Assembly: GCA_028687915.1 (NCBI GenBank)
Contig: JAQTZF010000001.1
Coordinates: 546,634 to 610,633 of the forward strand
DNA: 64,000 nucleotides
DNA from: Candidatus Daviesbacteria bacterium
GTDB taxonomy: Bacteria > Patescibacteriota > Microgenomatia > Daviesbacterales > UBA10151
Direction of reading: 5' to 3'
Part shown: positions 43,864-54,790 of the stretch, in pieces
Position numbering within the stretch: the stretch's first letter is position 1
Layout of the letters: each line of letters begins with the position of its first letter
Notes under the pieces: generated by a model
Database searches by the model: none
The model's input: only the letters and a program-made list of their open reading frames with translations
What the model was told of the DNA's origin: nothing
Position numbers and translations under genes: made by a program

Positions 43864-43883
43864 TCGGAGCCAGCGGTGAGAAT
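43864..43883 (-). repeat. 20-nt direct repeat of the 3' end of tRNA-Thr (TCGGAGCCAGCGGTGAGAAT), 68 nt downstream of the tRNA
   Basis: The 20-mer is identical at 43864-43883 and at 43952-43971. The second copy overlaps the tRNA-Thr T-loop and acceptor 3' end. Confidence 0.8.
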
Positions 43884-43955
43884 AAGATAGGCTTGTGCTG
43901 CGCAAGCTTAGCACACTTCCTTCTTTATCACACCTTGTCTCCTCATTGCTTTCGG

Positions 43956-44027
43956 AGCCAGCGGTGAGAATTGAACTCACGACCCATCCCTTACGAAGGG
44001 AGCGCTCTACCGCTGAGCTACGCTGGC
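43956..44027 (-). tRNA. tRNA-Thr (anticodon CGU)
   Basis: Reverse-complemented, it folds as acceptor GCCAGCG/CGCTGGC, D-arm GCTC-AGCGGTA-GAGC, anticodon loop TTCGTAA, T-arm GTGAG-TTCAATT-CTCAC, discriminator U. Confidence 0.75.
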
Positions 44028-51593: not shown

Positions 51594-51977
51594 ATGTTTA
51601 AAAGAAATTTCCTTTTAACAATGATTTTTGGCCTTGTTCCTTCCTTTTTTCTTTACAGAGCTGTTTATGGTTTTCTACACGATCAGGTTGTTTGGAAAAA
51701 TTTAGGATGGTCTGTTTCCTCTCGTTTTTATTCTGGCAGTGGTCTAAAAATACAAGCGCTAGAGGATTTGTTAATCTATTTAGGTTTTGTATTATTCTTT
51801 AGCTACCGACTTAATTCTAGTGAAAACTTAGTAGGAGGCAACGGATCACTAGATAAAAGGTTTGTAACTTTTTTCACTCAAGCATTTAACCCATCCACCT
51901 TATTTATCATCATTTTAGTAAGTATTATTTATCTACCATTAGTTTTTCTACTTGGGCAATCTATAAACCCTTGGTAG
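51594..51977 (+). CDS. Small membrane protein, unknown function
   Basis: It is 127 aa with N- and C-terminal hydrophobic helices. Confidence 0.25.
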   Translation: MFKRNFLLTMIFGLVPSFFLYRAVYGFLHDQVVWKNLGWSVSSRFYSGSGLKIQALEDLLIYLGFVLFFSYRLNSSENLVGGNGSLDKRFVTFFTQAFNPSTLFIIILVSIIYLPLVFLLGQSINPW

Positions 51978-52072
51978 CAAATACTAACCGCTTTTATGTT
52001 TATTTAGCCAAACCACTATTTCGAGCCTAAAATCAATAAAAGGGACTATTCTGGGGACACTGTCCCGTCTGG

Positions 52073-52143
52073 AGCGGGGTACGAGAATCGGACTCGCTTC
52101 TCTACCTTGGGAAGGTAGCATACTACCGGTGTACTAACCCCGC
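52073..52143 (-). tRNA. tRNA-Gly (anticodon CCC)
   Basis: Reverse-complemented, it folds as GCGGGGT-TA-GTAC-ACCGGTA-GTAT-G-CTACC-TTCCCAA-GGTAG-AGAA-GCGAG-TCCGATT-CTCGT-ACCCCGC-U. The U73 discriminator is typical of Gly. C55 in the T-loop is unusual. Confidence 0.65.
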
Positions 52144-52352
52144 ACGAATAATTTCTTGAACCCATTCCCGCCTTTATAAGACTTTATTTGTTTTTCTCTT
52201 CTGCAACATTCAAGATATTCATTATACTCTTCCGTGTAGACTACCTCCCATATTCCTTTTTGTCTTGTAGATTTAGTATGCCCTCTATTATGTTCAGAAA
52301 GGCGCCTTACTAAAAACATCTGACTGGCTTCTCTATCTTGGGAAGGCGGCAT
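52134..52352 (-). pseudogene. Decayed GIY-YIG (UPF0213/YhbQ-like) nuclease gene lacking the N-terminal GIY motif; its 3' end overlaps tRNA-Gly
   Basis: FLVRRLSEHNRGHTKSTRQKGIWEVVYTEEYNEYLECCRREKQIKSY aligns to the C-terminal two-thirds of the intact copy at 54231-54494, and about 23 N-terminal residues (the GIY-YIG block) are missing. The first 9 codons of the track ORF are read from the degenerate tRNA copy. The stop TAG is tRNA-Gly positions 8-10. Confidence 0.6.
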
Positions 52353-52375
52353 ACTACCGGTGTACTAATCCCGCG
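52328..52375 (-). repeat. Partial diverged duplicate of tRNA-Gly(CCC) 5' portion (acceptor 5' strand, D-arm, anticodon loop) upstream of the GIY-YIG remnant
   Basis: The reverse complement GCGGGATTAGTACACCGGTAGTATGCCGCCTTCCCAAGATAGAGAAGCC matches tRNA-Gly positions 1-48 with a disrupted anticodon stem. Confidence 0.7.
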
Positions 52376-52413
52376 TTAACTTATTTCTGAATAATTATAC
52401 ACTCAAATTTAAA

Positions 52414-53088
52414 TTAGCGTGGGATTTTTAACACCATTCCTGGTTGGATGAGATCAGGGTTTGCGATATTGTTTGCTTCAGCGAGTTTGTTGAATTGCAT
52501 AATATCACCATAAGCTCTTCCAGATATTTTTGATAACCAGTCGCCTTCAACTACTGTATATGTATTTCCAGTAATTTTTTCACCCCAAGTTGTTTGGTTC
52601 TCTGAACCTCCTGTTGCTATTTCATTTGTGGTTGAGGCAGATGAAGTTGCAGTTTGAGTTATAGTTGGGGTTGCAGCTGCAGTTGTTTCTTCAAGCTTAG
52701 GAATTTCTAAAACTTGTCCGGTATTAATGGAGTCTGCATTAGTTAAATTATTAGCTTTAGTTATCTCAGTATATTTAAATCCATTATTATAGTATTTTTG
52801 AGCTATTGTAAATAAAGTATCTCCATTCTTTACTGTGTATTTTCCTGGTAAATTATCAGGTGTTACATCAGCCTGGGCTGTTTCTTCTATTTGATTAGAA
52901 GGACCAATGGTAGCTTTGTTTGTTTTAAAATAGTTAAATACTAAAATTCCAGCAATTACTACTATTAATAAACCCAAAACTAAACTTAAATAAGATTGAT
53001 CTAGTTTAAGTTGTTCTTGAAGTTTTTGTAATAATGATTGGTTTTTGTTTGTTATTTCGTTGTTAACAGTTTTTTTAGATCTTGGCAA
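52414..53088 (-). CDS. LysM-domain peptidoglycan-binding protein (2 LysM repeats), membrane-anchored
   Basis: YTVKNGDTLFTIAQKYY and YTVVEGDWLSKISGRAYGD...VLKIPR are LysM motifs. An N-terminal TM helix and a Thr/Ala-rich linker are present. Confidence 0.7.
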   Translation of the reverse strand: MPRSKKTVNNEITNKNQSLLQKLQEQLKLDQSYLSLVLGLLIVVIAGILVFNYFKTNKATIGPSNQIEETAQADVTPDNLPGKYTVKNGDTLFTIAQKYYNNGFKYTEITKANNLTNADSINTGQVLEIPKLEETTAAATPTITQTATSSASTTNEIATGGSENQTTWGEKITGNTYTVVEGDWLSKISGRAYGDIMQFNKLAEANNIANPDLIQPGMVLKIPR

Positions 53089-53321
53089 TTAAATTCACCT
53101 CCTTTTTTATTGGGCAGAATTCGGGGCAGAGCAAAAACATTACTTTGAGCAGAAAAATTATGTTGATTTATATTTAATTGATTCAGGAATTTTTGTCAAG
53201 TGGATATAATATATTTGTGGGCTTGAAGCAAAAAATCTGGAACTCTTATTCAAATGTTTTGTACATCAATATAAAGTGTTAAATAGCTTACAAATTTTTG
53301 CCTAAATTGTTATAGTTAGGT

Positions 53322-53711
53322 ATGGATAACCTGACATCTCCGAATTCCGATAAAGTTTTTTATGAAGATGAAAAAGTTTATGCTTGTTTAGCAAGTTTTC
53401 CAATTACAAAAGGTCATTCTATAGTAGTTTGGAAAAAACCAGTAACAGATTTACACCTATTATCAAGAGAAGATTATGAATATTTAATGAACATAGTTGA
53501 TAAGACTAGAGATACTTTGATGAAGGTTATGAAAGTAGATAAAGTATATTTAATGTACATGGATGAAATTAAGCATGTGCACTGGCATTTAATTCCCAGA
53601 CACAATTTAATGGGATTTAATTTATTAAAACACAAGCCTAAAAAACTTACTTCTTTTAAACTTGTTGAGAAATTAACTGGTATGAAAGAATTAGCGAATA
53701 ACAATAGGTAG
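53322..53711 (+). CDS. HIT-family (histidine triad) hydrolase
   Basis: KHVHWHLIPRH is the HxHxHxx histidine-triad motif. It is 129 aa. Confidence 0.65.
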   Translation: MDNLTSPNSDKVFYEDEKVYACLASFPITKGHSIVVWKKPVTDLHLLSREDYEYLMNIVDKTRDTLMKVMKVDKVYLMYMDEIKHVHWHLIPRHNLMGFNLLKHKPKKLTSFKLVEKLTGMKELANNNR

Positions 53712-54113
53712 AATTTTTCTTTTATCAATAGGCAATCCTAATCGTTTGCTAGTTTCTTGCAGCTCTGTTTCTAACGATTCAGCATCTAGCTCTATTACAT
53801 CTGCGTAGAAGTCTTCTCCTCCACCGGACATTTGATCAAAAGAAAATAAAGAAAAACTCAAAATAGTTCCTGCAGAGCCTGACTCCCTTCTCAAAATTTC
53901 AATTTGACGGTAAATAGAAGCACCTATTTCAGGAGTTTCCCCTTTTATCACTACTTGTCTGCTAGTGTAACCTTGTTCAACTAATTCCTGTAGGGTTTTA
54001 GAGGCTAAACGATCTATTTTTAAATACATGTTATTATCCAAAAAATCAATCTCTTCGTCTATCTCTATTTTAAATTGTTCAAATTCATATGGATCAAAAT
54101 CCGGCTGACTCAT
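53691..54113 (-). CDS. Hypothetical acidic protein
   Basis: It is a 140-aa ORF with no recognisable motif. It lies immediately downstream, in tRNA orientation, of tRNA-Asp. Confidence 0.3.
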   Translation of the reverse strand: MSQPDFDPYEFEQFKIEIDEEIDFLDNNMYLKIDRLASKTLQELVEQGYTSRQVVIKGETPEIGASIYRQIEILRRESGSAGTILSFSLFSFDQMSGGGEDFYADVIELDAESLETELQETSKRLGLPIDKRKILPIVIR

Positions 54114-54167
54114 TAGTAAATTATATCTAAATATTATAGGTTATTCAAGAAGTAAAAACCTATCTAG

Positions 54168-54240
54168 CGGGACCGACGGGATTCGAACCCGCAACCTCTT
54201 CCGTGACAGGGAAGCGCTCTAACCATTGAGCTACGGCCCC
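54168..54240 (-). tRNA. tRNA-Asp (anticodon GUC)
   Basis: Reverse-complemented, it folds as GGGGCCG-TA-GCTC-AATGGTTA-GAGC-G-CTTCC-CTGTCAC-GGAAG-AGGTT-GCGGG-TTCGAAT-CCCGT-CGGTCCC-G. The G73 discriminator is typical of Asp. Confidence 0.8.
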
Positions 54241-54494
54241 AATAAAATGATTCCTTCTCGAATCATCCTTTCAAGTATATTCTTGTTTTTAAACTTCTTC
54301 AGTTTTAATTCAATCTTTCTGGCTTCTATCAAAGAAGAATATTCTTGATGTAATACCAGTTTTACAGGTCTTATAAACTTAAGGCTTTTAGTCTTACCAT
54401 TATTATGCTCCGCTAACCTTCGTTTAAGATCGTTTGTTGATCCAATATAGTACCGACTATTTACTTCTGATTGCACTATATAAACATAAGCCAT
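54231..54494 (-). CDS. GIY-YIG family nuclease (UPF0213/YhbQ-like, URI domain), intact
   Basis: MAYVYIVQSEVNSRYYIGSTNDLKRRLAEHNNG...HQEY.S...AR.IELKLKKFKN carries the GIY and YIG blocks, the Arg, and the Glu/Asn of the URI catalytic domain. The last codons LLGP-stop are encoded by tRNA-Asp positions 1-10. Confidence 0.8.
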   Translation of the reverse strand: MAYVYIVQSEVNSRYYIGSTNDLKRRLAEHNNGKTKSLKFIRPVKLVLHQEYSSLIEARKIELKLKKFKNKNILERMIREGIILLGP

Positions 54495-54553
54495 AATAAG
54501 GCAACCTGTCCGATGTCACATCGGACCGCTCTAACCATTGAGCTACGGCCCCA
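54495..54553 (-). repeat. Partial duplicate of tRNA-Asp 5' portion (positions 1-26, substituted hairpin, variable loop) immediately upstream of the GIY-YIG start codon
   Basis: The reverse complement is GGGGCCGTAGCTCAATGGTTAGAGCG-GTCCGATGTGACATCGGAC-AGGTTGC. It is identical to tRNA-Asp over positions 1-26 and over AGGTTGC. The anticodon arm is replaced by a perfect 6-bp hairpin. Confidence 0.8.
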
Positions 54554-54625
54554 AGACTGTGATATTGTATCAGAGCCTGGCTACACGGTCAATTAAATAC
54601 CTTCTATGGTAATATAAAGTTAACA

Positions 54626-54790
54626 TGTCTTTTGCTTTTTATTTATTGTTAACCTGTATCATTTCTGCAATTATAACGGTTGTTGGTTTTGTGAAAAATA
54701 TCACAATACTGAAGCTAATAGGAACTGTTTTTCTTCTAACTGGCATTTCTTTAGCTATTGCACTAGCTTTCTCCGTGAGAACTATGTAAA
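54626..54790 (+). CDS. Small hydrophobic peptide (54 aa, 2 TM), not in the ORF track
   Basis: The ORF ATG...TAA encodes MSFAFYLLLTCIISAIITVVGFVKNITILKLIGTVFLLTGISLAIALAFSVRTM. This was read directly from the sequence. Confidence 0.25.

Follow-up and report, generated by a model that had tools for sequence, protein, structure and literature searches.

The stretch of DNA analysed here, called the window throughout, comprises 64 000 nucleotides (nt) of contig JAQTZF010000001.1 from a Candidatus Daviesbacteria bacterium (Patescibacteria), an assignment that the proteins encoded nearby support, and has a G+C content of 33%. At 52070..52374 it carries a complete tRNA-Gly(CCC) gene preceded by a partial copy of the same tRNA and by the remnant of a small GIY-YIG nuclease gene. 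An earlier note, made from the letters alone, had described this locus as a second, decayed instance of a three-part element that also lies 1.8 kb away at tRNA-Asp; the homology of the two loci and the empty sites of a relative, described below, agree with that description. All features of both loci are on the minus strand. At the Gly locus the partial tRNA copy (A') comes first, then the nuclease remnant, then the complete tRNA (copy B):

52394..52399, minus strand: TATAAT, a -10-like box of the putative tRNA-Gly promoter region (sequence level)
52374..52318, minus strand: partial copy A' of tRNA-Gly(CCC), positions 1 to ~57 (alignment, blastn)
52319..52134, minus strand: GIY-YIG remnant open reading frame (ORF), 61 codons plus stop, from an ATG at the native start position (ORF list, Pfam, alignment)
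52143..52070, minus strand: complete tRNA-Gly(CCC), copy B (ARAGORN; Rfam tRNA, 55 bits)

Copy A' begins 231 nt upstream of the complete tRNA-Gly and contains the 5' strand of the acceptor stem, the D arm, the anticodon arm, the variable loop, the 5' strand of the T stem and the start of the T loop. By blastn within the window, 52374..52322 matches tRNA-Gly positions 1-53 at 48/53 nt (E = 5.8e-14), and weaker similarity extends to about position 57 at 52318 (51/57 identical to the full copy). The tRNA-Gly origin proposed in the earlier note therefore stands, whilst the length of 48 nt given there is too short. Its account of the anticodon arm was accurate: the TTCCCAA loop is intact, and three substitutions sit in the stem, which reads CCGCC/GATAG compared with CTACC/GGTAG in the real arm. 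Folded alone, the arm of A' reaches 0 kcal/mol and the real arm -4.2 kcal/mol. The complete tRNA-Gly follows downstream, as had also been noted; its T loop is unusual (TCCGATT, position 55 = C).

The remnant ORF opens with an in-frame ATG-TTT at 52319 that directly abuts the tRNA-derived part; a longer frame of 72 codons (52352..52134) opens at an ATG inside the partial copy. Its stop codon, TAG at 52136..52134, coincides with tRNA-Gly positions 8-10, and the same arrangement is found at the Asp locus. Further upstream, the sequence GAGTG(A)TATAATT is common to the Gly flank and to the region preceding the uninterrupted tRNA-Gly of L085, a Microgenomates contig (JGI sample 3300014208) whose neighbouring proteins are 84% identical to those of the window. 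A promoter scan called no full -35/-10 pair at the Gly locus, and the tRNA-Gly promoter is accordingly a call made from sequence. As the TATAAT box now lies upstream of A', any transcript would run through the partial copy, the ORF and then the tRNA. We rejected an assembly artefact, since independent Logan contigs hold identical junctions: L083, from a separate short-read assembly, has the same junction between the LysM gene, the partial copy and the remnant ORF. Short-read contigs of the window organism break at both tRNA duplications (L001, L002 and L083).

Pairwise alignment of the two loci, by which the earlier note could have been overturned, upheld it: the upstream segment is derived from tRNA-Gly and the ORFs are homologous. 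The remnant matches the protein encoded at 54.2-54.5 kb with 40% identity over 40 amino acids (aa) by BLASTP (E = 6e-7) and 34% over 59 aa by tblastn (E = 1e-6). It also matches the Pfam GIY-YIG family (PF01541) at 26.5 bits, above the cutoff of 22.6, over profile positions 23-71 only. In an alignment of 19 proteins, the remnant lacks Y5, Y16 and G18 and retains R26, H30, E62 and K66; i.e. the catalytic set (Tyr of GIY, Tyr of YIG, Arg, His and Glu) is incomplete. About 22 N-terminal residues are absent, including both the GIY and the YIG motif, close to the loss of some 23 residues that had been noted.

The mode of loss is likelier to be a deletion than a truncation. From residue 23-25 of its relatives onward, the remnant is 68% identical to the protein of L048 and 64% identical to that of L030. 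Intact relatives start at the same junction, and L048 likewise begins ATGTTT. Since ATG-TTT is retained in frame at the native start position, an internal in-frame deletion of roughly codons 3-22 is favoured over the N-terminal loss as first described, and a 5'-truncated insertion that was 'dead on arrival' is disfavoured. Inactivation is probably not ancient, because the frame of 61 codons is still open in an AT-rich genome. Two 65-aa database entries begin at the start point of the Gly remnant (LVRRLAEHN and MERRLNEHN), so loss or miscalling of the first ~22 residues recurs. On these alignments, the Gly copy is a genuine degenerate member of the family, without the catalytic tyrosines and without the hairpin that is found at its sister locus.

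The sister locus at tRNA-Asp (54167..54592) has the following features:

54564..54592, minus strand: tRNA-Asp promoter TTGACC-17-TACAAT (with TG), sigma-70-like, now upstream of the partial copy (promoter scan)
54501..54552, minus strand: Asp partial copy A (alignment to tRNA-Asp, blastn)
54526..54508, minus strand: hairpin GTCCGATGTGACATCGGAC, which replaces the anticodon arm of copy A (folding)
54494..54231, minus strand: intact GIY-YIG ORF of 87 aa (Pfam GIY-YIG, 60.2 bits, cutoff 22.6)
54240..54167, minus strand: complete tRNA-Asp(GTC), copy B (ARAGORN; Rfam, 73.9 bits; 74/74 identical to L085)

Copy A consists of tRNA-Asp positions 1-26 (26/26 identical), the hairpin, and then AGGTTGC, a segment from the variable loop and the start of the T stem that is identical to the real tRNA-Asp. 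The hairpin GTCCGATGTGACATCGGAC folds at -10.5 kcal/mol (z = -3.5). The Asp-locus ORF has all of the conserved catalytic positions, and its TAG stop is formed by tRNA-Asp positions 8-10. The promoter sequence is also found upstream of the uninterrupted tRNA-Asp of L085, with a flank identity of 42/45. The upstream copy of Asp-type loci shows no decay: the anticodon arm has been replaced by a conserved, covarying hairpin for which the model of the earlier note had no place. Searches with tblastn and with the hairpin pattern found no element copies in the window beyond the Gly and Asp loci. The exact 87-aa protein is recorded only from Logan assemblies and not from NCBI, and the neighbouring 140-aa protein is recorded from the NCBI metagenome-assembled genome (MAG); the intact nuclease gene thus seems to be unannotated in the deposited genome.

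The 87-aa protein is a bare, single GIY-YIG domain that ends after the catalytic domain. Y5, Y16, R26, H30 and E62 are invariant or nearly so among intact copies. An AlphaFold2 model of the Asp-locus protein (pLDDT 89) has the GIY-YIG alpha/beta fold. The top Foldseek matches were UPF0213 (1ZG2) and Slx1 (7CQ3 and 4XLG; TM 0.63-0.66), followed by the catalytic domains of UvrC and I-TevI, and phmmer against the PDB returned only 1YWL (EF2693) and 1ZG2 (BH0048), both UPF0213. The protein therefore falls into the UPF0213/Slx1-like class of minimal stand-alone proteins (~80-100 aa, no DNA-binding domain). The marks of the I-TevI/SegB type, namely a linker, a C-terminal DNA-binding domain and a TIGR01453 match above cutoff, were not found, and PHROG homing-endonuclease families match residues 1-34 only. 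Being below the TIGR01453 cutoff and without a DNA-binding extension, the protein is not a member of the I-TevI/SegB family, even if it is similar in behaviour.

L085 shows both sites in the unoccupied state, with the empty tRNA-Asp site at L085 5815-6010. Its gene order matches that of the window (PolX, tRNA-Asp, a 140-aa gene, HIT, LysM, tRNA-Gly), and both of its tRNA genes are plain, with no GIY-YIG ORF and no partial copies at either site. Compared with L085, the extra DNA in the window amounts to 312 nt at tRNA-Asp and to 231 nt at tRNA-Gly. Just before its tRNA-Asp, L085 has 45 nt that agree at 42/45 positions with the window sequence preceding the partial copy, and at only 23/45 with that preceding the full copy. 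The downstream Asp flank is identical at 46/55 positions. At both window loci the order is tRNA promoter region, partial copy, ORF and tRNA. Because L085 has plain tRNA genes at both sites, both window loci are discrete presence/absence insertions, and a conserved site with an empty allele, as expected of homing endonuclease genes, is thereby at hand.

At the Gly site, A' abuts the flank that in L085 lies upstream of tRNA-Gly. The full tRNA-Gly of the window is identical to that of L085 at 67/74 positions, and among the differences are compensated changes in two stem pairs (linear positions 6/65 and 49/61). At positions 6 and 49, where the 5' members of these pairs lie, A' agrees with L085 and therefore represents an older state of the tRNA-Gly gene. 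This is consistent with a resident 5' part that was displaced (A') and an allele that was either co-converted with the element or evolved later (B). The two compensated changes suggest a foreign origin for the full tRNA-Gly; evolution in place would also fit, since tRNA-Thr likewise differs at 4 positions between the window genome and L085.

The window holds a third tRNA-linked insertion with a breakpoint in the T loop (43864..44027, minus strand). Here tRNA-Thr(CGT) (44027..43954) is followed by a non-coding insert of ~71 nt and then by a 20-nt repeat of its own 3' end (ATTCTCACCGCTGGCTCCGA), which starts in the T loop; the fold is unremarkable (z = -1.1). In L085, tRNA-Thr directly adjoins the downstream gene, with neither insert nor repeat. 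This may be a fully eroded element or something unrelated.

The Gly and Asp elements are of one kind, as the earlier note held when it called them the same element, but they are not local copies of one another. Across host taxa the proteins cluster by tRNA identity, in Asp, Gly, Ala-TGC, Ala-GGC and Ile groups. The window Asp protein groups with the Asp element in L006, from another Patescibacterium. Identity of the Gly remnant is 64-68% with the Gly-type elements of L030, L048 and L028 and only 34-40% with its Asp neighbour 1.8 kb away. As the two fall into different clades, each with same-tRNA elements of other taxa, the Gly and Asp copies of the window are independent acquisitions. Each lineage keeps to one tRNA type, as it should if insertion homology, the recognition site or both come from the tRNA sequence.

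A motif-based scan that took one genome from each GTDB species gave 80 loci that encode relatives, from Patescibacteria, Bacteroidota, Omnitrophota, Planctomycetota, Kiritimatiellales and MAGs labelled Gammaproteobacteria. A tRNA gene on the same strand lies within 110 nt of the ORF at 61/80 loci (45 downstream and 16 upstream), against an expectation of ~1.1% set by how densely tRNA genes lie beyond 500 nt in the same loci; tRNA genes are thus the habitat of the family, in line with the view of the earlier note that they are targeted. Thirteen tRNA identities are represented. An upstream copy of the 5' part of the tRNA is present at 33/44 loci with a downstream tRNA, and where the tRNA is upstream, a partial copy of its 3' part follows the ORF. 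In 11 loci the ORF overlaps the tRNA by 9 nt, so that its stop is TAG = U8-A9-G10, and in 8 loci by 22 nt, with the stop in the D loop. In the window and in Patescibacteria relatives, the junction from tRNA to ORF is usually in the T-stem/T-loop region (position ~50 for the window Asp locus; ~57 for the window Gly locus, L006, L013 and L018), and the junction from ORF to tRNA is at tRNA position 1. At E < 1e-3 the family comprises 4126 clusters at 50% identity. Among 2.9 million viral contigs we found only 2 weak partial matches, and we rejected a phage-borne element on that basis. We also rejected a component of anti-phage defence, as PADLOC gave only weak matches, to the N-terminal motif.

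Some members of the family occur in tandem arrays of ORF, hairpin pseudo-tRNA and terminator: L062 2400-3300 (Indibacter alkaliphilus LW1), L066 1-1071 (Mongoliibacter ruber DSM 27929) and L051 2250-3300 (a Bacteroidales MAG). The first two are cultured Bacteroidota, and Arthrospiribacter ruber (L072) is a further cultured carrier of the family. L066 also has 105-nt pseudo-tRNA repeats without an ORF, and some array units have a second palindrome (CCTGCCTGCC..GGCAGGCAGG) in the T loop. Gene callers that read through such pseudo-tRNAs have produced artefactual long database 'proteins' (P0036, P0100, P0127, P0109 and P0121), in which a translated T loop reads 'RFES' and two tandem GIY-YIG copies are joined. 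At L004 (2930-3390), L016 and L023, 5' and 3' pieces of a hairpin pseudo-tRNA flank both the ORF and a true tRNA; the pieces agree with one another but differ from the true tRNA. In L004 they have C-G at acceptor pair 6:67 and a ccgag/ctcgg T stem, where the true tRNA has T-A and tgggg/cccca. These loci look as if one tRNA-like gene had been split by an inserted ORF together with a different tRNA allele.

Partial duplication of a tRNA is a hallmark of integrase insertion into tRNA genes (PMC9897764), and Patescibacteria carry group I introns in theirs (PMC13011429). The Gly locus could on this precedent be the attachment-site scar of an integrase island or prophage, or a group I intron, with the GIY-YIG ORF as leftover cargo. 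This is most improbable, and we rejected both on the size and content of the insert. At 231-312 nt it is nearly all ORF, with no recombinase, and it is the 5' portion of the tRNA (positions 1 to ~57) that is duplicated rather than the 3' portion. For the intron, no Rfam family other than tRNA was found at E <= 1 in 51900..54700; joining A' by splicing to the 3' portion of B would leave the stems mismatched; and the tRNA parts overlap as a duplication and are not split halves. The recurrence of the same architecture in 33/44 independent loci fits neither.

The reading that we consider probable is a minimal, selfish, homing-endonuclease-like GIY-YIG element nested in a tRNA gene, of which the Gly locus holds a degenerate copy. 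Such an element would consist of a stand-alone GIY-YIG gene of ~85 aa (Slx1/UPF0213 type) between a non-functional 5' tRNA copy and the functional tRNA. Since a complete functional tRNA is retained, the host would lose nothing. The nuclease gene would ride on the tRNA promoter and borrow its stop from tRNA positions 8-10. The nuclease would break an unoccupied tRNA gene of the same identity and the break would be repaired from the occupied copy, with the conserved tRNA sequence on both sides of the ORF acting as portable homology arms and the duplication keeping the tRNA gene functional. In a co-transcript, RNase P processing could remove the stop codon and yield a non-stop mRNA, which may hold the nuclease level low. 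The Gly copy would then be a dead passenger, kept only because the adjacent tRNA is needed. The suggestion in the earlier note that the nuclease is dispensable once inserted is in keeping with this: the tyrosines are lost, the tRNA is intact, and both fit the life cycle of a homing endonuclease.

A selfish element is not the only way to account for an ORF coupled so tightly to a tRNA transcription unit. The gene could be of benefit to the host, as a domesticated factor co-expressed with tRNAs (e.g. in tRNA-gene repair or in tRNA/RNA metabolism), with the partial tRNA copies as by-products of local recombination among tRNA repeats. The size of the family (the 4126 clusters above) and the conservation of the catalytic residues would suit such a role. 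A phylogenomic survey also noted prokaryotic Slx1-like minimal domains fused or adjacent to TrmH- and COG4123-type methyltransferases (PMC1564403), which hints at a tRNA connection for the wider Slx1-like group. However, a close relative, L085, keeps both tRNAs without either copy; the Gly copy is catalytically dead and truncated forms recur; and tandem arrays, ORF-less remnants and 13 tRNA identities complete a pattern that is typical of selfish DNA. We regard a host-beneficial gene as improbable.

The hairpin in the partial tRNA copies is the feature that a homing model leaves unexplained. In the window, CCGAY-N2-12-RTCGG has a single match, with 0.07 expected, and it coincides with the Asp element. 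Relatives of the same clade, found at tRNA-Ala, Asp, Gly, Ile and Val, carry a hairpin of the form YCCCGATG-NN-CATCGGGR at the corresponding site. Its helix is 98% paired across 19 sequences and shows compensation in the two outer pairs (UA/GC/CG/UG and CG/UA). Of the shuffles, 0/500 scored as high; the inner five pairs are invariant partly through ascertainment, as the sequences were gathered by pattern. Other clades have their own types: CCCCGCC..GGCGGGG in the clade of the Gly remnant; TCCCGAC..GTCGGGA; TCCCGCT..AGCGGGA; and CCTGCCTGCCGGCAGGCAGG, which sits in the D loop after position 21-22 at Bacteroidota tRNA-Arg loci and in one Patescibacterium. The first of the types, CCCGATG..CATCGGG, and the others track protein clade across phyla (L003-L016, L023, L043 and others). 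The sites are tRNA loop positions: the hairpin either takes the place of the anticodon arm or is set into the D loop (after 21-22) or the anticodon loop (after 35). It may be upstream or downstream of the ORF and is always within an incomplete tRNA copy, and some loci show none. Sense-strand extensions of the stem include 29 G-T pairs compared with 11 A-C pairs (p = 0.006), which favours a single-stranded structure of the sense strand. At the window Gly locus no hairpin of the clade type was found in A'; the 5' arm of its anticodon stem, CCGCC, resembles the 5' arm of the Gly-clade hairpin, with three substitutions too few to interpret. Rfam holds no known RNA family that matches the partial copies or hairpin tRNA-like units of the window and four related loci.

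Candidate roles for the hairpin are a recognition or cleavage structure for the nuclease, an interrupter of the direct repeats that could otherwise delete the ORF, and an RNA stabiliser. A terminator or an element that sequesters the Shine-Dalgarno sequence is unlikely, given a GGAGG-like 3' arm 14-20 nt from the ATG, the occurrence of the hairpin on either side of the ORF and the lack of a T-run after it.

Taking the first of these roles further, the nuclease might read the clade-specific hairpin (as a cruciform, single-stranded DNA or RNA) as the mark of the end of the element, rather than reading tRNA sequence. Structure-specific cleavage at the hairpin would then start movement or copying in a manner more like IS200/IS605 or REP/RAYT than a classic homing endonuclease, and the Gly copy would be doubly dead, without tyrosines and without hairpin. 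The match between hairpin type and protein clade across phyla, the near-complete pairing with compensation at the outer pairs, the excess of G-T over A-C extensions, the placement at tRNA loop positions and the single occurrence in the window all fit this idea, as do the nearest folds, which are Slx1 structure-specific nucleases. Yet a linked cis element that is passed on along with the ORF would follow the protein clades just as well, even if the nuclease does not act on it, and stabilisation of the mRNA or interruption of the repeats would serve as well. The loci with no hairpin, the variable side of the ORF and the pattern-based collection behind the invariant inner pairs tell against it too, and action of the protein on the hairpin is a conjecture. 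On balance we think a hairpin-directed element unlikely, though likelier than a host function.

Atypical T loops are found in 10/61 ORF-adjacent tRNAs compared with 1/50 other tRNAs in the same loci (Fisher p = 0.012). They occur at the window tRNA-Gly (52070..52143) and at L005, L021, L048, L038, L058, L060, L061 and L064; examples are the TCCGATT of the window tRNA-Gly and TTTGAAT (position 56 = T) in Bacteroidota tRNA-Arg. Either target-site immunity or relaxed constraint could lie behind them. That altered T loops make the donor immune is a hint only, since most adjacent tRNAs are normal and the window tRNA-Asp is identical to the empty-site allele.

Returning to the homing-endonuclease-like element, several points besides the unexplained hairpin count against it. 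The tRNA-Asp at the occupied site is the same as the empty-site tRNA (74/74), so that classical donor immunity via disruption of the target is not evident, and the adjacent tRNAs with atypical T loops are just those 10/61. At the Asp locus, the left homology arm runs for only 26 nt before it meets the hairpin. Clusters at 90% identity hold 1-2 members and near-identical copies at different sites were not found; recent mobility is therefore not demonstrated. The protein scores 27.4 bits with TIGR01453, where the cutoff is 56.05, over residues 1-39 only, and has no DNA-binding domain; its nuclease activity and its cleavage target are both predictions. The empty-site comparison rests on one relative, L085 (a metagenome scan with the neighbouring PolX gene for more empty sites gave one unusable locus), and gain in the window lineage or precise loss in L085 would both fit. 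Gain and loss alike, however, are the behaviour of a discrete mobile or deletable unit.

We found no description in the literature, in which subscription journals were thinly covered, of a chromosomal minimal GIY-YIG gene in a tRNA duplication with a cognate hairpin, and the family, which is widespread, is apparently undescribed. Tentatively, these loci may represent an undescribed class of mobile element, in which an Slx1-like nuclease co-evolves with a cognate hairpin planted in a pseudo-tRNA loop; the hairpin, and not a protein domain, would provide recognition of the target or the element end, and tRNA genes would provide both a safe harbour and portable homology arms. We hold this composite picture to be possible rather than likely. 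If true, it would for the first time give the orphan stand-alone GIY-YIG proteins of the UPF0213/COG2827-like kind a biological role. More generally, selfish elements as small as these, with a single 85-aa gene, without a DNA-binding domain and with ~250 nt of private DNA, would be an addition to those known and would offer a DNA-level alternative to intron splicing for the harmless invasion of an essential RNA gene, by partial duplication. They would also account for many small genes called 'GIY-YIG nuclease family protein' and many partial or odd tRNA calls in Patescibacteria, Bacteroidota and further phyla, and for assembly breaks at such sites. The clade-specific hairpins make target finding by a bare GIY-YIG domain directly testable, and minimal nucleases that target tRNA genes may find practical use as compact enzymes specific for a site or a structure.

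Amongst known systems, the closest in behaviour is SegB of phage T4, a free-standing GIY-YIG endonuclease encoded in the phage tRNA cluster. SegB recognises 27 bp with the T-loop motif GGTTCRANTCC, cuts many tRNA genes, and cuts the tRNA genes of its own genome less efficiently (PMC2330249). It also drives tandem amplification of tRNA-Tyr and segB via a microhomology that the 5' end of the tRNA shares with the 3' end of segB (PMC13096335). The window elements and their relatives share with it a GIY-YIG gene among or against tRNA genes, many tRNA identities within reach, putatively cleavable sites in the donor genome, and tandem repeats of tRNA and nuclease gene, which SegB generates through microhomology; the junctions of the window elements likewise lie in the T loop and at tRNA position 1. 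The earlier note had argued for structure-directed targeting from the fact that two tRNA identities, Gly and Asp, are hit in the same structural region; this does not follow, as SegB reaches many tRNA genes via T-loop sequence (PMC2330249). The differences are that SegB is phage-borne, ~220 aa long and has a C-terminal DNA-binding part (NUMOD3), whereas the window protein is chromosomal, 87 aa long and Slx1/UPF0213-like; and, unlike the window elements, SegB is not described with a partial tRNA duplication, a stop-codon overlap or a clade-specific hairpin.

In sequence and fold the best matches are instead UPF0213/COG2827 proteins (BH0048, 1ZG2; EF2693, 1YWL; E. coli YhbQ) and the Slx1 domain, which have a single minimal GIY-YIG domain with the same Y, Y, R, H and E positions. 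In the literature searched, a link between UPF0213 or Slx1-type proteins and tRNA genes or mobility was not established. Slx1 differs in acting on branched DNA together with Slx4 and a RING domain.

Integrase islands and prophages likewise leave one complete and one partial tRNA copy, with the tRNA still functional. They are kilobases long, encode a recombinase and duplicate the 3' part, whereas the window elements are 231-312 nt, have no recombinase and duplicate the 5' part; the family loci with an upstream tRNA duplicate the 3' part, as integrase islands do. The group I introns of Patescibacteria, some with homing endonuclease genes (PMC13011429), are from the same phylum, selfish, and spare the host tRNA. 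They restore the tRNA by RNA splicing, whereas the window elements have no ribozyme and the tRNA is restored at the DNA level by duplication. Finally, IS200/IS605 TnpA and REP/RAYT systems likewise pair a small gene with a clade-specific, covarying, perfect hairpin at the edge of the element, and do so with HUH/Y1 transposases.

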